Source of the DNA: Escherichia phage QL01
Sequence record: NC_028847.1
DNA length: 64,000 nucleotides
Strand: one strand, 5' to 3'
Part shown: one piece after another, positions 3,166 to 45,961 of the stretch
How positions within the stretch are numbered: position 1 is the first letter of the stretch
Layout of the letters: every line of letters begins with the position of its first letter
Translations under genes and position numbers: made by a program
Notes under the pieces: model-generated
What the model was told of the DNA's origin: nothing
The model's database searches: none
The model's input: the letters and a program-made list of their open reading frames with translations, nothing else

Positions 3166-3403
3166 CCTTGATGCATGATTCAGCCATATGAATTAATGTT
3201 TCTGGAGTATCATCTACCATTACATTAAAGCTAAATTCCACAGCCCAATCAGTAGCAACATAAACTTTAATAAGCTCGTTGGTATCGCGAGTGCTCACGG
3301 CTTCAAACCAGAACTTAATGATATTCGTTTGGTTATCGTCATCAATAACGATGCAGTCGTGTTCTAGTTCAAGGCCTGATTTTTTGAATTCATCTAAAGT
3401 CAT
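3140..3403 (-). CDS. hypothetical protein (between 47 and 46)
   Basis: Minus-strand ORF, 4-nt overlap with gene 47 stop. Confidence 0.4.
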   Translation of the reverse strand: MTLDEFKKSGLELEHDCIVIDDDNQTNIIKFWFEAVSTRDTNELIKVYVATDWAVEFSFNVMVDDTPETLIHMAESCIKDAYNDENV

Positions 3404-4422
3404 CGTGTAACCTCATTATAAAGTTGTGCGGTCATAGTCTTAAGGGCTTTAACATCGTCTTCAGTGTGGCCATCAGGAAGGGCATCGATATAATCATACA
3501 TCATATCCAAGAGGGACTTAACTTCATCTTCCTCTTCAGAATCATCGATATCAACACTGTTATCTACCTTAGACACAATACGTAAAGAGTGAACAACCTT
3601 TTCAAGTTCAGATTCGAACTTGGTAAGCCCGTCATCAATTTTATCGACTATAACACGAACCGCAATATTTGTAAAATCTTTGTAATCGATAGTCGCATTC
3701 GGATAATGAATCTTACGATGCCAACAAGTTTCATTGATGATGAAATCCATTTTATGGGTTTCTGTATCGAAAATCCAGAAGCCACGAGGGTCGTTCTCAT
3801 CACCTGCAGTCAGGGTCCATGGCGTACCAATATACTTGACGTTTGCTGCATCAGAAATGGTGTGGAAGTGACCAGACCATACTTGCTTATACTTCTTAAG
3901 GAAATCAGGTTCTAAACCATGTGATTTCATTCCTTTATAGAAATAGAAACCATTTAATTCCCAGTGGCCAATACAGAAATCGGCAGTAGTATTTTTGATA
4001 TGGTCCATGATATCAGTCGTGTTTTCTTCACACATCCATGGAATCAAATCAATTTCTGTACCATCAAAGTTAACCGTAGTAGGTTTCTCAATAACCTTGA
4101 TATGGTCGTATTTACCCAGAACTTCAGAAGCAGCGTTCGGTGTCAAGGTATTTTTGTAGTGTGCATCATGGTTACCAACAACAGTATACATGGTAATGCC
4201 ATTTTCTTTAAGCAAATCTGAAATATGTCTGGCAAATTCCATGCACTTATGAGTAATTGCTTTACGAACATCAAAAATATCACCATACTGAATCCAGACA
4301 GTGATACCATTTGCTTTAGAATAATTGATGGCGTCTTTAATGCCTGCCAATTGAATATTTTGCACCCAAGGGTCGTCGTTCTTCACTCCAAGGTGCCAGT
4401 CACCCGTATTAAGAATTTTCAT
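3400..4422 (-). CDS. 47: recombination endonuclease subunit gp47 (Mre11/SbcD-like phosphoesterase)
   Basis: Begins MKILNTGDWHLG (phosphoesterase motif I), GNHD motif downstream; ~340 aa; start taken at internal Met of ORF 3400..4494. Confidence 0.9.
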   Translation of the reverse strand: MKILNTGDWHLGVKNDDPWVQNIQLAGIKDAINYSKANGITVWIQYGDIFDVRKAITHKCMEFARHISDLLKENGITMYTVVGNHDAHYKNTLTPNAASEVLGKYDHIKVIEKPTTVNFDGTEIDLIPWMCEENTTDIMDHIKNTTADFCIGHWELNGFYFYKGMKSHGLEPDFLKKYKQVWSGHFHTISDAANVKYIGTPWTLTAGDENDPRGFWIFDTETHKMDFIINETCWHRKIHYPNATIDYKDFTNIAVRVIVDKIDDGLTKFESELEKVVHSLRIVSKVDNSVDIDDSEEEDEVKSLLDMMYDYIDALPDGHTEDDVKALKTMTAQLYNEVTR

Positions 4423-5026
4423 TACGTATCCGTTCCCACATTTTGGAGGCTGCTTTAGAAGCAGAGCCAGGAAGTTTACCTTTGACCCACCCATCAGGAA
4501 TATTAGATGGGTTAATCAGTTTATGTTCTATTCCGTTATTATACCACTTCCTGCCCTTATTATGACTAGATGCTTTATAATTAGGTGAACGACCTTCTAC
4601 ATATCCTTCGGGGACTGTAGGTGCAAAGGTTTGTTCTAATGTAATAGGATTATAGGAATGAATATACCCTTTAGCATTATGAGAGCCGTAAAGAGGGTGT
4701 TGCTCTTTAGGTAGCGAAAGCCCAAAGAATCCTTTAGGAGCTGCGACAGCCCTATTAAAGAATAGAGGATTTTGGGCCGCATTGGTTCTTAACTGGTACA
4801 TTCTTTCAGCTTCTAAAGCCTCTTCTCTTGTAGGGTGTTCACTTACAATACATGAGTCAAATAATTCTGGATGCTCTAAAAGCTCATTTTTATAGATTTC
4901 TTTATATGCTTTAGAAAGGACACTCCCGTGATATCCTTTTAAATGCTTCTCTAAAGTGGTAGACCCTATATAAAACGGTGGAAGCTTAGTCCCGGAATAT
5001 ATTGTCAGGTATGTGATGTATTTCAT
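4409..5026 (-). CDS. GIY-YIG family homing endonuclease (Seg-like), free-standing
   Basis: N-terminal YLTIYSG...PPFYIGST resembles GIY-YIG catalytic motif; C-terminal basic NNGIEHKLINPSNIPDGWVKG typical of homing-endonuclease DNA-binding modules; overlaps gene 47 start by 14 nt. Confidence 0.65.
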   Translation of the reverse strand: MKYITYLTIYSGTKLPPFYIGSTTLEKHLKGYHGSVLSKAYKEIYKNELLEHPELFDSCIVSEHPTREEALEAERMYQLRTNAAQNPLFFNRAVAAPKGFFGLSLPKEQHPLYGSHNAKGYIHSYNPITLEQTFAPTVPEGYVEGRSPNYKASSHNKGRKWYNNGIEHKLINPSNIPDGWVKGKLPGSASKAASKMWERIRNENS

Positions 5027-6567: not shown

Positions 6568-6633
6568 TGTTACCTCAGATAACTCAAATCATAGGTCTAT
6601 TATATCATAGTATTTGAAGACCCTTTTAAAGCA
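6568..6633 (-). promoter_or_regulatory. candidate middle/early promoter upstream of gene 55 (MotA-box-like TGCTTTA, TACTAT/TATAAT -10 candidates)
   Basis: Minus-strand reading ...GATGCTTTAAAAGGG...TACTATGATATAAT...GAGGTAACAATG; spacing not ideal. Confidence 0.3.
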
Positions 6634-6897
6634 TCAACGGAGTAAGCAATAAGCCTGAAATACGGTTTCAAGGATTTGTGTGAACTCGGAATAAGAAATT
6701 GTATCAGTACATCCATGTTCAGACATATATCCACAAAATTCTTTAAAAAGACCTGGATATTCGCGATGGTTGTATTTGGAAATATGAGACTTCCATACTA
6801 AAGAAGTCTCACCACAAACAAACTCAACATCCATACAGTTATCTATTAAGAAAAATCCGAGACCTTCGTAGGCGAGGGTAGTGGATACAGGGGTCAT
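6634..6897 (-). CDS. hypothetical protein
   Basis: 87-aa minus-strand ORF, 4-nt overlap with upstream ORF. Confidence 0.4.
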   Translation of the reverse strand: MTPVSTTLAYEGLGFFLIDNCMDVEFVCGETSLVWKSHISKYNHREYPGLFKEFCGYMSEHGCTDTISYSEFTQILETVFQAYCLLR

Positions 6898-7160
6898 TGT
6901 AGGAATCGAGCTCCTTCTAGTGCGTCATCAAGATTATCAAACTCGTCGACATAATCAACACCGCCAACTTCGTCCTTCGCATAAAGCCAGTACTGTTTAA
7001 ATTCGTATTCGATGATGAAGTGGTCACCCTCAATCTGGAGAGCCCCATCACCATTAAATTGAACTGCATAACCGGTAAAGCGGACATCATTCAAGAGTTC
7101 TTCTTTCATAGCAATCATTTCCAAGTTTTTATCGTAATTAGAGAGTTTTATTTTAATCAT
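6894..7160 (-). CDS. hypothetical protein
   Basis: 88-aa minus-strand ORF, overlapping stop/start with neighbours. Confidence 0.4.
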   Translation of the reverse strand: MIKIKLSNYDKNLEMIAMKEELLNDVRFTGYAVQFNGDGALQIEGDHFIIEYEFKQYWLYAKDEVGGVDYVDEFDNLDDALEGARFLQ

Positions 7161-7486
7161 TTCGCTGCCTTAACAATTTTCAGGTCAACGAATTTTTTCT
7201 TACGTTGGTTTTTCATACGACGGATAGTTTTATCCGTGATTTCGCCAGGGCACCAAGCTTTGGATTCAACACCAAAGGCAGCGACATCGAATTCATCAAG
7301 GATATATTGAACCAGGATTTCACGAATACCGTTCTTACCAATTTTCTGGTCTTTAGAGTGCATGATTGGTAACAGTTCAGCAACCCATTGGTCAAGAACC
7401 TGAGGAGTTACAAAACCTGTTTTCATCAGTTCGTTTACTTTATCGAAAGCGAAAGAGTTCAGTACGTTTTTAATAGCTTGTGACAT
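7157..7486 (-). CDS. hypothetical protein, basic C-terminus (start MSQAIKNV)
   Basis: Internal Met of ORF 7157..7648 preceded by GAGGAAA; shares its RBS and first 5 codons with the gene at 13854..14696. Confidence 0.5.
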   Translation of the reverse strand: MSQAIKNVLNSFAFDKVNELMKTGFVTPQVLDQWVAELLPIMHSKDQKIGKNGIREILVQYILDEFDVAAFGVESKAWCPGEITDKTIRRMKNQRKKKFVDLKIVKAAK

Positions 7487-38412: not shown

Positions 38413-38685
38413 TTATTTTAAATAAATTGCATATTTTTTATAACCAGCCGTCTCGTGGCGCAGCCCTTTTTCATTAGCAAAACGTTCAATATTGTTAATT
38501 TGATTCTGGTCGAGTTCTGAAGTATCAAATACAAAAAAGTTTCGCTTATTGCCTAAAGTTACGTGATTAGTCAAATCGATGTTATAGAGATGATTTATAT
38601 TATCAATCATGGTCTTAACAGATTTGTTAATTTTTACTTCTTCATTAAGAATAGATTCAGCGATAAATTCTTGGTATGATTTCAT
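38413..38685 (-). CDS. internal protein with capsid-targeting sequence
   Basis: Begins MKSYQEFIAESI; 90 aa. Confidence 0.6.
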   Translation of the reverse strand: MKSYQEFIAESILNEEVKINKSVKTMIDNINHLYNIDLTNHVTLGNKRNFFVFDTSELDQNQINNIERFANEKGLRHETAGYKKYAIYLK

Positions 38686-38686
38686 T

Positions 38687-38911
38687 TTATTCAGCGCCAG
38701 CGGCTTTCAAAAGTTTTTTAAGATTGGCTATGCCGCCAGCAGAAAACGTGACCTTGCCACCTTTTTCATTGATAGAGCCAGTCAATTTAGCAAGCTTATC
38801 ACTAGGGACTTTTTTAAAATCAGCCAGTGTGCCATCAAAGGTTTTTGTAACAATTGGCAGTTCATCTTCATGTCTTTTAGCTTCGGTGATAAATTCTTGA
38901 TAAGTTTTCAT
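38687..38911 (-). CDS. internal protein with capsid-targeting sequence
   Basis: Begins MKTYQEFITEAK; 74 aa. Confidence 0.6.
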   Translation of the reverse strand: MKTYQEFITEAKRHEDELPIVTKTFDGTLADFKKVPSDKLAKLTGSINEKGGKVTFSAGGIANLKKLLKAAGAE

Positions 38912-38988: not shown

Positions 38989-39681
<693 letters not shown>

Positions 39682-39689
<8 letters not shown>

Positions 39690-40443
39690 TTTTATTTCCT
39701 AATAATTTATCAATAGTGGTGTATAGTTCAGAAAGAGTGCCGTTATTTTCAACAACAACGTCACCAGGTAAAATTGGTAGACCCGCTTCAGTGATGTGCG
39801 AGTCTTGTACTTGACCGGTTTCAGCGCGAACTACATGAATAATCGTAGCACCCATCGCTCTGAGCGAATCAATTTCGTGTGTTTGACGAACATCAGGTAC
39901 GACATAGTATTTCGCATCAGAGTATATTTTATCAAAATAGTCTAAAGCGAACAACTTAACCCAATACATCTTATCAAATTGGTTAACAATAATATCAGTC
40001 CCAAGGGTCTGCATGAGACGACGTACTGACCAATTGTTATTTTTATTTATTACTTCAAACAGTTGGTCTTTTGTTTCTTCAGACAGATACTGGACTGGGG
40101 TAAGACCATAATGATATGCGGTACGAACATCCATTCCTGGAATAGGAAGGATATTATTCAGTTTGACAATAGCATTTTCAAAGATATCAATCACATCATA
40201 TGGTTTTAAAGGAATGATTTCTTCACGGTCGTAACCGATACCTTCAAAACAGTTAAAATCTAGTTTAGGCATGTAACTACGGTCGAATACAGGGTCATCA
40301 GAGATGTATTCATAGGCTTCAGCCAGATACTTTTTAATAGGACCTGCGAGCTGAAATTTTACCGAATCCATATTTTCGATTACATAGTTAGCAACGGTAT
40401 CCTTACCGCTACGTTTGATTCCTACAATTGATATTAGTTTCAT
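39682..40443 (-). CDS. 1: deoxynucleoside monophosphate kinase gp1
   Basis: N-terminal P-loop GIKRSGKDT; ...WSVRRLMQTLGTDIIVNQFDKMYWVKLFALDY... colinear with T4 gp1. Confidence 0.92.
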
Positions 40444-41033
40444 TATTTTCTCATAGATGGATGCATAGACATACGAGCCACTCGTTGTTCGGCATACGAA
40501 TCAATTTGTGGACGACCTGTAACTATTGTACCATCTATTTCTACAGCAAACGATTTGAAGTTGAATGTTGCTGTGGCGATAATCGCCGGGTCAGAATCCT
40601 CTTTATAAGAGTACTGGATTTCCGAGAGGTCGGATGGCCAACCATCGTAGTAATGAATGCTCATTACGATTTTCTGTTTGTTATTATCAAGGATGTGGAG
40701 GGTGATAGCTTCCGGTTGACCTTTAGGATGCCAGGCTTCTGAATCATGGGTTACATAGTTGTTTAATGACAACATCCACTTATAAACGTCAAGCCACGAT
40801 TTCAATTCACGGTCCACAAGAAAGTTCACAATCAATGGGTCGAATTCTACAGTAGAACCTGGCAGCTTAGCACGATGTATGCCCTGGGTCGATCCTGGGA
40901 CGTCTGAGACCGGAATATGGATACCCGGTAGTGTTACATCTTGTACGTTCAATTTGAATGCCTGTGTCATTCCTGCGTCACTAACCTCTAAGATAAAGTT
41001 AGTAGTGTTAGTTTGGTTAAATAAACCGTTCAT
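40443..41033 (-). CDS. 3: tail tube terminator / sheath stabiliser gp3
   Basis: 196 aa; position between 1 and 2 as in T4. Confidence 0.75.
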   Translation of the reverse strand: MNGLFNQTNTTNFILEVSDAGMTQAFKLNVQDVTLPGIHIPVSDVPGSTQGIHRAKLPGSTVEFDPLIVNFLVDRELKSWLDVYKWMLSLNNYVTHDSEAWHPKGQPEAITLHILDNNKQKIVMSIHYYDGWPSDLSEIQYSYKEDSDPAIIATATFNFKSFAVEIDGTIVTGRPQIDSYAEQRVARMSMHPSMRK

Positions 41034-41115
41034 AGGGTTCCTATATTGCTTAAGTCCCAGACAGTGTATAATGGTCCTAGGTCTGTTCCATTCAATAACT
41101 GGCTGGGATAATAGA

Positions 41116-41766
41116 TTATTTTATAAATTCACGTAGTCTTACTGGTGTCATAAAAGGCCATTTGGCTATAGTTGGTTTTATCCAGTATCTTTCGTGGCAT
41201 GTAGCTTTAAATGCCCGAACCATATCCTTGGCCTCTTCTATAGTATCCACACCAAATTGTTCACAAGTTTCCTTTCTGGCTTTATCCCATCTCCGTTTAG
41301 AAAGCTCCGCTTGGAGTTCTTTATTGGCAAAACGGCCATTATTCCTATCATGAGTGGTTCCTTTTGTAGGACTCCATCCTCGTCCCTTTACAAATCCTTC
41401 AGGAATCGGTTCACCCGGAAACAGCTTAATACACTTCTTGCCATTATTATAATAAACCTTTCCTGTTTGGGTTGCTGTGATATTCTCAGAGTGCTTACGT
41501 TTAAGCCAGCCGTAAAGCTTATTAGAACGACGAGGGCCTTGAGTCATTGTCATAGCTGCAAAAGTTAGACCAGGATGTCCTGGATGCATTTTAACTAATA
41601 GTTGATGTGCTAAATAATGTTCTTCAGGAGTTAAATCAACTAAGTTTGTAGATTCATCACCTCCACCCATACATCTAGGTAAAATATGATGAGATTCGGT
41701 ATAACAGGATAGTGCTCGTCCTTGAGCACGTGTAATTAATGAAGAATATATTTTCTGGTAATTCAT
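41116..41766 (-). CDS. HNH family homing endonuclease, free-standing between genes 2 and 3
   Basis: HNH motif ESHHILPRCMGGGDESTNLVDLTPEEHYLAH; C-terminal basic NNGKKCIKLFPGEPIPEGFVKGRG module; ATG overlaps gene 2 stop (TAATG). Confidence 0.75.
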   Translation of the reverse strand: MNYQKIYSSLITRAQGRALSCYTESHHILPRCMGGGDESTNLVDLTPEEHYLAHQLLVKMHPGHPGLTFAAMTMTQGPRRSNKLYGWLKRKHSENITATQTGKVYYNNGKKCIKLFPGEPIPEGFVKGRGWSPTKGTTHDRNNGRFANKELQAELSKRRWDKARKETCEQFGVDTIEEAKDMVRAFKATCHERYWIKPTIAKWPFMTPVRLREFIK

Positions 41767-42602
41767 TATGCCTTCTTCCAAACTTTCTGAGCTGAATAAC
41801 GCTTACCTTTCGATACAAATTGCTGAAGTGGTAATCCTATTACATTAGCCCAATCAGATGGTTTTATCTCTACTAAAGGTCCCTTAATATTTCCAGGGAT
41901 ATAAGCCTTAATCATCACGTCGGCGCCAGCGAATCCTTTTACCTTACTCCAATCGATTTTTAATTTAGTCGAGTTCGTAATGGTAGGCGTACTCGCGTAT
42001 TGCTTCAGCAATTCTTCCAGAAATTGCTGACGTGCTTTAGGTGGAATATAGTGTAAGTTCAGTCCGTACATTAAATTATGCTTACCTAACCCAAGATAAA
42101 TTATTAAAGGATATTTGTCCCAGTATGGTAGGGTATCCTTATGTTTGGCATCATAGATATAAGCATAAAGCTTACCAGGAGACGGTTTAGATACCTGGTG
42201 TCCACGAATTCCTTTCTTTAATGTTTCTGTAAACCATTTAGCTGATTTATTGTTTACGGCAGCGCCTTCGTTAGCAATCTTATCGCGAATACTCTTTCTA
42301 AAACTATTCACCAAAATTAATTGACGTTCGGCTTTGGTTAATTTATTGCCAGGTTTCTTCTGAAGTTTTTCAACCTGTACAGCAGTTTTAATTCGACTCG
42401 AGTATCGAGACATCGCAGATGTAAAGCTAGAATACTTGATGCCTTTATCTTCAGCGAATTTCTTAGCCGAAACACCTTTAGCCTTAGCGTTGGCATATTC
42501 AACGCCTAAAGTTATCCATTGTTGTTCTGAACGAGTAGGCTTGGAACCTTTTGTAGTTTCAGTAGCCTCGTTGATGTAAGAAAATATACTCATCCTTTCC
42601 AT
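41766..42602 (-). CDS. 2: DNA end protector gp2
   Basis: 278 aa, T4 gp2-like length and position. Confidence 0.8.
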
Positions 42603-43039
42603 CCTAATTTTTTCAGTGAGTTTTCGGTAATCAATCTGAAATTAATTCCCATTTTATCTGCTGTAGCTTTAGCAGCTTTCCATTTATCTTTATTTACACT
42701 CCATGTATAATGTTCGTTGATATATCTCTTTTTAGCAGCTGTAGTCATTTTAGCAGGCGCCGCTGGAGGATGGGTCTCTTTAAAAGGTTTGACTTCGAAA
42801 AAGAATTGTTGACCATTGTCGAACTTCACCCAGAAGTCCATAAAATACCGACGTTTCTTTCCATCAGCGTTACTAAAATATGGAATCACAACCTCTTCCG
42901 AGTTCCACTGGACGACATTAGGATGGTTGTCAAGCCAACGCATAAGCCATGCTTCCCAAGAGGAACGATATTGGATTTTCTTCCAATCACCTTTATATTT
43001 TTGTAAGTTTGTAGGTTTAAATTTCCCTGAGTAGGCCAT
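42590..43039 (-). CDS. 4: head completion protein gp4
   Basis: 149 aa; divergent from gene 53 across a shared late-promoter region as in T4. Confidence 0.8.
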
Positions 43040-43049
43040 AGTGCCTCCT

Positions 43050-43057
43050 TATAAATA
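43050..43057 (+). promoter_or_regulatory. late promoter TATAAATA for gene 53
   Basis: Exact T4 late consensus; 27 nt upstream of ATG 43085. Confidence 0.6.
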
Positions 43058-43064
43058 TTAATAT

Positions 43065-43072
43065 TATTTATA
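43065..43072 (-). promoter_or_regulatory. late promoter TATAAATA for gene 4
   Basis: Plus-strand tatttata; exact consensus on minus strand. Confidence 0.6.
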
Positions 43073-43084
43073 CTCGGAGGCACT

Positions 43085-43687
43085 ATGCTCTTCTCATTTT
43101 TCGATCCTATAAATTACGAATCAAAAACAGTCAAGCCAGATTCCGGCTCATTAACTGATGCCGATGTACTGAGCGTACCGATGACTGATATATTTAGAAA
43201 CTATAAAGAATATTTTGATAAAGTGGCTAAAAATTATACACTTAAAACATATTATATCAGTGGGGCCCCTCGTCCAGAAGAATTAGCCCATCAACTTTAT
43301 GGTAACGTGCAATTATATTGGGTTTTATTGATGTGTAATAACGTATATGACCCTTATTACGGCTGGATTACAGGCCAAGAATCTGCGTATCAAGCAGCTA
43401 TTCAACGTTATGCTACTGCAGGCGGAAACCAAGTCCTTTATCATGTCAATGAAAAGGGTGAGAAATTCTGGAATCTAGTAAATACTCCGGAAAATCCTTA
43501 TACTTGGTACGATAAAGGTGATACAGAAAAACGTTATCCTCAATATGAAGGTCCTTTGGCTGCAGTAGATATTTACGAGGACGCCATTCGTAAAAATGAA
43601 TATAAGCGCGAAATAAAGATTATAGACCCTAATGACATCGAGTCCTTTGTTTCCGCTTTAATTAGAGAAATGGAGAAAGCCCTCTAA
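43085..43687 (+). CDS. 53: baseplate wedge protein gp53
   Basis: 200 aa; first gene of plus-strand late module. Confidence 0.85.
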   Translation: MLFSFFDPINYESKTVKPDSGSLTDADVLSVPMTDIFRNYKEYFDKVAKNYTLKTYYISGAPRPEELAHQLYGNVQLYWVLLMCNNVYDPYYGWITGQESAYQAAIQRYATAGGNQVLYHVNEKGEKFWNLVNTPENPYTWYDKGDTEKRYPQYEGPLAAVDIYEDAIRKNEYKREIKIIDPNDIESFVSALIREMEKAL

Positions 43688-45429
43688 TGATTAACATGTC
43701 TGATAATGTAAGTTGGTTCGTCGGTGTAGTTGAAGACCGAATGGACCCACTCCAACAAGGCCGAGTACGCGTGCGCGTATGGGGTATGCATCCATATGAA
43801 AAAGTACAAGGCCCTGTAAAAGGCCTTCGTACAGAAGATTTACCATGGATGTCGGTATTAATGCCTACATCTTCTGCCTCTGTTTCAGGTATCCAAACCG
43901 CTATGACTGGTATGGTCCCCGGTACACAAGTTTATGGTCACTTTCTTGATAAGTGGAAATTAAACGGACTTGTCCTTGGTACATACGGTTCCGCTTCAAG
44001 ACAGAAGGCTAATCCTAATGAAGGGTTTAGTGACCCTACAGGCCAATATCCGCTTTATTTAGGTAACGATGCTGCTGCTTTAAACCGAGGTGGTGAAGTT
44101 GGATACGATGCCACTTCTAACGTAATACAAGATGCAAACACTGATGTAGGTATTAATCCTGACGGGTTGGATTTAAGTCAAGTCAAACCAGACGATAATC
44201 CTAATTTCACAATAGAAAACATGCTTCATCGTGATGAAGGGCTTAGACTGAAGGTATATTGGGATACCGAAGGTTATCCTACTATAGGTATAGGCCACCT
44301 TATCACACCACAACCTATTAGAGATATGAATCGAATAAACAAAATATTATCTAATCAGGTAGGACGAGAAGTTAAAGGTAACCCTGGTGCAATATCAATG
44401 GATGAGGCTTCTAAATTATTCCAAGAAGACCTTAAAAAAGTCCAAAACGATATAGGTCGGCATAGTGTTGTAGGTCCTGTTTACAATAAAGAAAACCGTT
44501 CAAGACAAATGGCTCTTGAAAACATGGCTTTCCAAATGGGATTAGGTGGATTGGCTAAATTCCGTGGAATGCTTAGTGCAATGCTAATAGGCGATTATAA
44601 AAAGGCATTTGAGGAAGCTCGTAATTCAGTATGGTTTAACCAAACTAAAGGTCGCGCATCAAGGGTGTCAATGATTATCCTCACAGGTAACATGGAATCA
44701 TATGGTATTATGGCCCCTAAAGAAAGGTCATTTAATGGCCGTTCGTATAGAATGATTCAAACCTTTGTGGCCCCTACAAATTCAGACCCTGCCGACCCGT
44801 GGACTCCAGAAGACACAAGGATTCTTTTTAAAGAACCTGATTCTAGTTATAAAGGCGAATATCCATATGTCCAAACCATGCAAACTGAAGGCGGGCATAT
44901 CCAAGAATTCGATAATACCCCAGGGCAAGAACGATACCGTTTAATCCATCCTACCGGTAGTTATGAAGAAGTTGCTCCTGATGGACGTAAAACTTCTAAG
45001 ACGGTAGCCGATGGTTATTATATGACCCAAGGCGATTCAAATACTTATGTTGGTGGTAATAATAAAGTCAACGTTGGTGGCGATGAAACCTATTATAATA
45101 TGGCAAACGTGCGTCGTCAGACTGATGGAAACGAAACCATCCATATTCGCGGTAATGAAGAGAAAACTGTAGAAGGTAATGGCACCCTTCGTGTTAAAGG
45201 TAATGTTACTGTTATTGTTGAAGGAAATGCTGATGTTACTGTTAAGGGTGATGCAACTACCTTAGTTGAAGGTAATGAAACTCGTACGACCAATGGTAAT
45301 TTAAATTGGACAGTAAACGGTACCGTTTCTTGGACTTGTGCAGGTGCGTGGTCCGAGACTATGGCTTCAATGAGTTCTATTGCATCTGGTCAATATACTA
45401 TTGATGGTTCGAGGATTGACATTGGCTAA
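43687..45429 (+). CDS. 5: baseplate central spike with lysozyme domain gp5
   Basis: 580 aa; internal T4-lysozyme-like domain (HRDEGLRLKVYWDTEGYPTIGIGHL); C-terminal VxGNxxV beta-helix repeats. Confidence 0.93.
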   Translation: MINMSDNVSWFVGVVEDRMDPLQQGRVRVRVWGMHPYEKVQGPVKGLRTEDLPWMSVLMPTSSASVSGIQTAMTGMVPGTQVYGHFLDKWKLNGLVLGTYGSASRQKANPNEGFSDPTGQYPLYLGNDAAALNRGGEVGYDATSNVIQDANTDVGINPDGLDLSQVKPDDNPNFTIENMLHRDEGLRLKVYWDTEGYPTIGIGHLITPQPIRDMNRINKILSNQVGREVKGNPGAISMDEASKLFQEDLKKVQNDIGRHSVVGPVYNKENRSRQMALENMAFQMGLGGLAKFRGMLSAMLIGDYKKAFEEARNSVWFNQTKGRASRVSMIILTGNMESYGIMAPKERSFNGRSYRMIQTFVAPTNSDPADPWTPEDTRILFKEPDSSYKGEYPYVQTMQTEGGHIQEFDNTPGQERYRLIHPTGSYEEVAPDGRKTSKTVADGYYMTQGDSNTYVGGNNKVNVGGDETYYNMANVRRQTDGNETIHIRGNEEKTVEGNGTLRVKGNVTVIVEGNADVTVKGDATTLVEGNETRTTNGNLNWTVNGTVSWTCAGAWSETMASMSSIASGQYTIDGSRIDIG

Positions 45430-45439
45430 TATTTTACCT

Positions 45440-45961
45440 ATGAGCACAGATTTAGGAGACTCCATGGAAGGAGCCTCAATCGATGTTACGTTTACTGCTC
45501 AATTAGAAACAAACGAAACATTAGTTGAAATAAATATAACAGAATATGAGCCTACAGAAGGCATTATTGTCGATGGAGCTCATTTATATGGAACCTACGA
45601 ATCGGTATTTGGATTCTCTGAAGATGCCTTGAAATATCGATTAAACGATGAATTTAAAACAGCCGGTTCATGGAAAGACTTACCAGGCGATAGTAACACT
45701 CAATTATACCTCTGGAAAGCCCCTAGTAATCTCCAGAAGACGTTTTCTTACACAGTCACATTAATCTATGACTTTCAAGAAGAGTCATCAGGAGGTGATA
45801 CAGGGAACTCAGGCGGTAGTAATTCTAGGGCCGGTAGCGAAATAGACCCTCCTCCGGCTCCTGTAAGAAAAACCCTTACTAAGGTTTATACCAAGGTTAT
45901 TGTCGGTAATTGGTCCAAATGGGCAAATCAATTAAGAGAATACGTATATGCGAGGCCATAA
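45440..45961 (+). CDS. 5.1: gp5.1-like baseplate-associated protein (start MSTDL; alternative ATG at 45464)
   Basis: Position between 5 and 5.4; ~173 aa. Confidence 0.6.
   Translation: MSTDLGDSMEGASIDVTFTAQLETNETLVEINITEYEPTEGIIVDGAHLYGTYESVFGFSEDALKYRLNDEFKTAGSWKDLPGDSNTQLYLWKAPSNLQKTFSYTVTLIYDFQEESSGGDTGNSGGSNSRAGSEIDPPPAPVRKTLTKVYTKVIVGNWSKWANQLREYVYARP

Follow-up and report, generated by a model that had tools for sequence, protein, structure and literature searches.

The closest described systems for the gene considered here are the Mob proteins of phage T4, which have an HNH domain in common and differ in their C-terminal domain (PMC2988022). Among them, MobE nicks a neighbouring conserved gene, and a bipartite target has been proposed for this enzyme, consisting of a conserved block bound by its C-terminal part and a polymorphic stretch at the nick; the mobE gene is promoterless and depends on upstream transcription (PMC2790892). 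The occurrence of common DNA-binding modules in HNH and GIY-YIG homing endonucleases is an established concept, designated NUMOD (PMC1564403, PMC2988022). In a survey of 2010, the phages JS98 and JS10 were listed without homing endonuclease genes (PMC2993671), whereas later isolates show that the JS98-type phage group does carry such genes.

We analysed a window of 64,000 nucleotides (the whole stretch of DNA under study) from Escherichia phage QL01 (NC_028847.1), which is a Dhakavirus, i.e., a JS98-like T4-type phage. The closest match to the stretch is phage E33, which is 98.4% identical across 93% of a query of 25 kb, and judged by such alignments the stretch is a mosaic relative of known isolates. 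The genes at the locus are arranged as follows.

41116..41766, minus strand: free-standing homing endonuclease gene of the HNH (Mob) type, coding for 216 aa and a stop codon (ORF call, PHROG 655, identity with the E33 protein)
41766..42602, minus strand: gene 2 (gp2, DNA end protector), from the annotation of E33 and LHE83 and from alignment; its conserved 3' end abuts the insert
40443..41033, minus strand: gene 3 (gp3, tail completion/sheath stabiliser), the downstream neighbour of the endonuclease gene
42590-43039, minus strand: gene 4 (gp4), from the annotation of near-identical phages
39682-40443, minus strand: gene 1 (gp1), from the annotation of near-identical phages

According to near-identical annotated phages, genes 53 and 5 are located on the plus strand and are thus divergent from the minus-strand genes 4, 2, 3, and 1. 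Positions 41768-41764 of the coding strand read TAATG, so that the ATG of the endonuclease gene at 41766 and the stop codon of gene 2 have one base in common. Both the 216-aa ORF between genes 2 and 3 and its TAATG overlap with the gene 2 stop had been described in an earlier reading based on the nucleotide sequence without database searches (hereafter the sequence-only reading), and they were confirmed by the ORF call and the annotation of the neighbours. Phage E33 encodes a protein with 100% identity to the QL01 endonuclease, annotated as 'putative site-specific intron-like DNA endonuclease'; the element is already known at annotation level and is an ordinary selfish gene.

The distribution of the insert was surveyed with a 2160-bp query extending from gene 3 to gene 2, which matched 50 phage records with an identity of at least 90%. 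The insert is present in seven of them (E33, LQ5, ABTNLS3, C6, 04086, SHP1, and dhabil), and the other 43 match the query in two pieces, each without exactly 650 bp and with an intact, conserved empty site. In a base-level alignment of the coding strand, insert-free genomes read ...GTATGGAAGAATTCATAAT followed directly by CTATTATCCCAGCC..., and insert-bearing genomes read ...GTTTGGAAGAAGGCATAAT, then the insert GAATTACC...TTTATAAAATAAT, and then CTATTATCCCAGCC..., which defines the following elements.

41764..41769, minus strand: left junction with the gp2 stop/endonuclease start TAATG; left ATAAT copy at 41765-41769
41115..41119, minus strand: right junction with the right ATAAT copy, 650 bp from the left copy
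41034..41115, minus strand: conserved spacer of about 83 bp from the endonuclease stop to gene 3, the same with or without the insert

Where insert-free genomes have the gp2 stop, insert-bearing genomes have the stop codon TAA of the endonuclease gene; genes 2 and 3 are both intact in the absence of the insert. At the homologous point, T4, which does not carry the insert, reads ...TCAAATATCTAA followed directly by TTCTATTATC..., and RB32 reads ...AATAAATTAA followed directly by TTCTATTATC... after its copy of the gene. The endonuclease gene is free-standing between conserved genes, outside any intron or intein; the region showed no RNA family match that would indicate an intron or RNA element, the Rfam scan of 40300-43200 yielding one chance miRNA match. 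The 650-bp gene is an insert resident in a minority of Dhakavirus phages and cleanly absent from most relatives. The empty site in 43 of the 50 close relatives bears out the insertion between genes 2 and 3 postulated in the sequence-only reading, which had named as contrary evidence the presence of the ORF in all relatives combined with the lack of an empty site, a pattern that the comparison of the 2/3 junction in the 50 records did not give.

The spacer downstream of the endonuclease gene is near-invariant in 13 Dhakavirus genomes (pi = 0.010) and partly kept in T4 and RB32 (ATTGAATGGAA..GAC.TAG.ACCCATTATAC). A hairpin is predicted within it at 41055-41108 on the minus strand (-22.2 kcal/mol, z = -1.9); it has no Rfam match and might serve gene 3 in processing, stability, or translation.

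The endonuclease is a modular protein with a 'beads on a string' layout, in which an HNH (beta-beta-alpha-metal) core is followed by a basic beta-hairpin module and this in turn by a C-terminal four-helix domain; the encoding segments are as follows.

41542..41766, minus strand: N-terminal HNH nuclease core, residues 1-75 (AlphaFold2 pLDDT about 97; homology to MobB)
41605-41691, minus strand: HNH motif HHILPRCMGGGDESTNLVDLTPEEHYLAH (HH..N..H..H) within the N-terminal core
41380..41463, minus strand: basic beta-hairpin module TGKVYYNNGKKCIKLFPGEPIPEGFVKGR, residues 102-129, with predicted strands at 104-107 and 112-115
41119..41331, minus strand: C-terminal four-helix domain, residues 146-216, presumed locus-specific DNA-binding domain

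Residues 1-107, and only these, can be aligned with T4 MobB (48% identity, 9e-29) and T4 MobC (38% identity, 6e-19), and the protein matches the 'homing endonuclease' family PHROG 655 (7e-56); this homology places it among the free-standing HNH endonucleases of the T4 Mob group. The HNH motif claimed in the sequence-only reading is upheld by the residues H26, H27, N41, H50, and H54, which are invariant across 74 relatives, and by an AlphaFold2 model (mean pLDDT 89.9) in which strand 24-27, strand 42-45, and helix 47-60 form a strand-strand-helix arrangement at residues 24-60, although Pfam is silent on the QL01 protein itself (no HNH domain, no match at E up to 1). The NCBIfam scan of the protein also gave nothing meaningful. 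At E up to 0.01, the Pfam HNH model PF01844 (PF01841-class) is matched by 39 of the 74 relatives and HNH_5 (PF14279) by 16; the family profile matches the McrA HNH domain (E = 0.006) with the HH...N...H residues aligned, and the motif also aligns with the HNH motif of a group II intron maturase. Beyond the core, the model comprises a helical stretch, the beta-hairpin (104-115), and a helical domain (149-215), the latter preceded by a disordered linker (135-145). The C-terminal part is basic, as had been noted before, with pI values of 10.3 for residues 76-135 and 9.7 for residues 136-216. Structure searches with the whole model gave no significant match.

When modelled alone, the C-terminal 74 residues form four helices (pLDDT 88.5). 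Foldseek found nothing better than E = 3 for this domain among solved structures, and the weak likeness to HMG-box and Fur-like proteins in these searches was not trusted. More than 1600 database proteins match the QL01 endonuclease (E up to 0.001). About 85-100% of its length is covered by the top 25 or so clusters and about 45-65% by most of the 95 listed after them. Relatives that match only in the N-terminal part carry a NUMOD3, NUMOD1, helix-turn-helix, or I-TevI DNA-binding domain instead and sit at other loci, such as nrdA, helicase genes, and the gene for a topoisomerase II subunit. Among the records inspected, the four-helix domain was seen only in copies located at gene 2; on this basis, it is presumed to specify the target and regarded as a putative DNA-binding domain.

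In our view, the gene is probably a Mob-type free-standing HNH homing endonuclease gene which would spread by nicking or cutting empty alleles close to the 3' end of gene 2. During mixed infection with an insert-free relative, binding of the enzyme to the spacer between genes 2 and 3 or to the conserved gene 2 end would be followed by a nick or cut in the insert-free genome near the bound site; repair of this lesion by recombination with the endonuclease-bearing genome would place a copy of the 650-bp gene, together with a short flank, in the empty site.

The lineage to which the gene belongs is not confined to Dhakavirus but extends to other Tevenvirinae genera. Full-length relatives were detected by tblastn in 143 phage records, and the DNA end protector gene adjoins all of the full-length homologues listed, that is, the 60 best matches and four from a spread sample. 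Amino acid identity to the QL01 endonuclease is 79% for Kosakonia phage 305, 71% for Serratia phages X20 and LC53 and Erwinia phage Gravdalen, 64-66% for Klebsiella and Citrobacter phages, 61% for RB32, RB33, HY03, and many Tequatrovirus phages, and 52% for Acinetobacter phage Maestro. The identity of gene-2-adjacent copies, which ranges from 52 to 100%, tracks that of their flanks: in dhabil, the endonuclease is 94% identical and the flanking genes 95-97%; in RB32, the values are 61% and 46-69%; and in Kosakonia phage 305, the endonuclease (79%) falls within the range of gp4, gp2, and gp3 (73-83%), with gp1 at 46%. As the G+C content of the gene also equals the genome average, this parallel divergence indicates that the gene has probably resided in the phage group for a long time. 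Codon differences are mostly synonymous (34 synonymous to 12 non-synonymous against dhabil, 77 to 45 against Kosakonia phage 305), so the gene is under purifying selection. The presence of the insert is not predicted by the similarity of the flanks: when the surroundings of the site are compared in 250-bp bins, most bins of insert-free LHE83 are 100% identical to QL01, and insert-bearing dhabil is only 85-97% identical, and the occurrence of near-identical flanks with opposite insert status points to recent gain or loss.

Parallel divergence from gp2, gp3, and gp4 across genera and an average G+C content would also be expected if the gene were an old resident that is vertically inherited and repeatedly lost, whether through deletion or through recombination with phages that have the empty site, and that is inactive or decaying and no longer spreading. 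Precise deletion could occur via the 5-bp repeat ATAAT found on either side of the gene, and the last gp2 codons of insert-free JS98 (AAC GCA) are the same as those of insert-bearing dhabil, which fits such losses. A decaying gene is, however, at variance with the intact ORF in the copies examined and the full-length matches in so many records, and the invariance of the catalytic residues and the predominance of synonymous changes argue for a function under selection. In addition, LHE83 differs from QL01 in three flanking SNPs at the junction despite the near-identical flanks, unlike the product of a simple slippage deletion. We consider this history unlikely.

Variation at the junction was compared among seven occupied and six empty Dhakavirus genomes, and two features of gene 2 stand out.

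41811..41849, minus strand: polymorphic patch of gene 2, covering roughly codons 15-27 counted back from the stop and located 45-85 bp upstream of the insertion point
41781, minus strand: fully linked SNP, T in insert-bearing and A in insert-free genomes, in a synonymous Val codon (GTT vs GTA)

The highest nucleotide diversity of the gene 4-gene 1 block (pi = 0.141, vs 0.00-0.09 elsewhere) is reached in a 60-bp segment immediately upstream of the insertion. WG01 is 100% identical to QL01 across gp2, gp4, and gp53 (41943-43692) except for about 18 SNPs at 41811-41849, which makes the patch a mosaic boundary between otherwise identical genomes. Its gp2 alleles IGL, VML, VMM, and TLL (non-synonymous) are shuffled independently of the surrounding sequence and show no correlation with insert status. 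The patch may hint at repeated recombination or selection near a target, which is not the same as proof. Position 41781 is the only site without a shared allele between the two groups of genomes, and the last two gp2 codons are also changed beside the insert. As a general immunity determinant, 41781 was rejected, because Kosakonia phage 305 carries the insert with GTA.

Further variable segments are found in the surroundings of the locus. Two small adjacent ORFs starting with MKSYQEFIAE and MKTYQEFITE are located at 38413-38911 on the minus strand; this segment behaves as a replaceable cassette, with an identity to relatives of about 48% to 99% between flanks of 97-100%. The two starts resemble the conserved leader of T4-type internal head proteins. 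Phage IME540 has an annotated Seg-like homing endonuclease gene (6595-7230) between genes 53 and 5, at a site corresponding to QL01 position 43687; QL01 and most relatives do not have this gene, which makes the site, only about 2 kb from the HNH site, another polymorphic endonuclease locus. At the 3' end of gene 5 (45193-45442), the identity to near-identical relatives falls to 49-81%, and in the gene 57A region (39443-39692) two allele classes occur (about 71% vs 96-100%); these drops in identity indicate mosaic exchange.

The sequence-only reading had also pointed to a likeness between the C-terminal segment YYNNGKKCIKLFPGEPIPEGFVKGR (YYNNG...PEGFVKGR) and part of another endonuclease encoded in the window.

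4409..5026, minus strand: second free-standing endonuclease gene, GIY-YIG-like, with two tandem copies of the module (4589-4660 and 4478-4546)

The resemblance was found again by BLASTP, with 13 of 28 residues identical (E = 0.001 for the pair), and by profile-profile comparison of the two families with hhalign (93.5% probability, E = 2e-7). The module is conserved both in a 74-sequence alignment of the HNH family and in an 18-sequence alignment of the GIY-YIG-like family, and the product of ORF 4409-5026 shows the repeat pattern N-x-G...P-x-G-[WFY]-x-x-G-[RK]. T4 SegB, which has a different nuclease core, carries the same module at its C-terminus (...WIHSLDEKVSKRIKKTDPIPEGWFKGRKMKF). SegB and the QL01 HNH protein have the consensus G-x-x-[WY]-x-N-x-G ... 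P-E-G-[WF]-x-K-G-R in common, which also occurs twice in the product of ORF 4409-5026. Both the profile-profile match and the presence of the module in SegB, a characterised GIY-YIG enzyme, support the earlier proposal that the module is common to different nuclease cores, in which it would presumably bind DNA. There is little chance that the likeness is merely coincidental or compositional, as may happen with short basic glycine-rich segments: the pairwise match is indeed short, with 28 residues at E = 0.001 in a single comparison, and Pfam has no model for the module, but the profile-profile result, the conservation of the motif in both alignments, its tandem occurrence in the GIY-YIG-like protein, its presence in SegB, and the confident beta-hairpin in the QL01 model all speak for a common module. 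This question concerns the module claim only. No Pfam model matches the module in the QL01 protein, and no published name was confirmed for the hairpin.

The GIY-YIG label of ORF 4409-5026 itself is weakly supported by sequence comparisons. PF01541 scores 18.4 bits, below the curated cutoff of 22.6, and is matched by 14 of 18 relatives at E up to 0.1 (best 5.5e-4); the N-terminus of T4 SegB shows weak similarity (E = 0.01), and comparison of the family profile with solved structures gave no GIY-YIG structure and nothing relevant. By longest-ORF call, it extends into the 5' part of the ORF of gene 47 (3400-4494).

It is very unlikely that the HNH protein serves the phage, either as a nuclease against co-infecting phages or satellites or in a DNA-end or gp2-related role that would explain its location: adjacency to the DNA end protector gene is kept across several genera, the gene is under purifying selection, and homing endonuclease domains have been reported in phage-satellite conflicts (PMC10448857), yet the gene is dispensable, being absent from most close records and from T4, its homology is to Mob homing endonucleases and not to packaging-associated HNH proteins, and an empty site of such precision is the mark of a mobile insert.

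For the homing endonuclease gene, a more specific scenario may be put forward tentatively, although we are inclined to doubt it: the gene-2-adjacent Mob lineage might be unusually old and site-faithful, having kept to one junction during the divergence of the Tevenvirinae genera, with a previously undescribed type of four-helix domain reading the end of gene 2 or the spacer hairpin and the nick placed in the polymorphic patch. If this were true, the lineage would provide a natural system for the co-evolution of an endonuclease and its target, and selection for resistance would be recorded in the patch. A literature search found no activity or target data for any member of the gene-2-adjacent lineage, none of which appears to have been characterised so far. 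QL01 or E33 on the one hand and LHE83 or WG01 on the other form near-identical pairs differing by the 650-bp gene, which are ready for homing crosses and nick mapping. Otherwise, the gene is one more copy of an annotated selfish gene, with a modest value as a clean natural example of the Mob lineage.

Regarding expression, the nearest exact match to the late promoter motif for the block of gene 4, gene 2, the endonuclease gene, and gene 3 is located upstream of gene 4.

43065..43072, minus strand: T4-type late promoter TATAAATA

A second exact TATAAATA is present at 43050-43057 on the plus strand, so that the two stand back to back between genes 4 and 53. No exact TATAAATA that could serve as a dedicated late promoter was found between gene 4 and gene 3, and sigma-70-like promoter matches were not above shuffle expectation. 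The start of the endonuclease gene is preceded by a weak Shine-Dalgarno-like sequence (GGAAG/GAAGG). Most likely, the gene would be read from the late gene 4-2 transcript, and its translation is probably weak and coupled to the gene 2 stop in TAATG. A hairpin sequestering the ribosome-binding site, as known for mobE, is not predicted, as the start region folds no better than shuffled sequences (z = +0.67). The palindrome CCAGGACATCCTGG at 41570-41583, which is followed by a T-rich run and has a terminator-like score on both strands, was rejected as an internal terminator of the mobE kind, being unconserved in dhabil, Kosakonia phage 305, and RB32, and is probably due to chance.

Compared with the described systems, the QL01 gene resembles the T4 Mob genes (MobA-E) in its position between conserved genes, its sporadic distribution, and its family-specific C-terminal region (PMC2988022, PMC2790892). 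T4 MobB and MobC have an N-terminal HNH part homologous to that of the QL01 protein, whereas the C-terminal halves are unrelated; mobB is located at alpha-gt/alpha-gt.2, and the QL01 gene at the gene 2/gene 3 junction, which is empty in T4. The late, low-level, coupled expression presumed for the QL01 gene would be comparable to that of promoterless mobE (PMC2790892). The conserved internal terminator described for mobE has no conserved equivalent in the QL01 gene, and a start-sequestering hairpin is likewise not predicted there. The target layout proposed for MobE may serve as a model for QL01, where a conserved gp2 block lies beside a polymorphic patch. The nearest counterparts are RB32ORF146c and the genes of RB33, HY03, Kosakonia phage 305, X20, and Maestro, which belong to the same full-length lineage (52-79% identity) and are located directly after gene 2; the start of the endonuclease gene overlaps the gene 2 stop as ATGA in RB32 and as TAATG in Kosakonia phage 305, as in QL01. 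In the RB32 record, the gene is annotated as 'similar to mobB; not conserved from T4 position'. The RB32-type counterparts reside in other genera than QL01 and have diverged about as far as their flanking genes, and the QL01 gene is no departure from this known kind.
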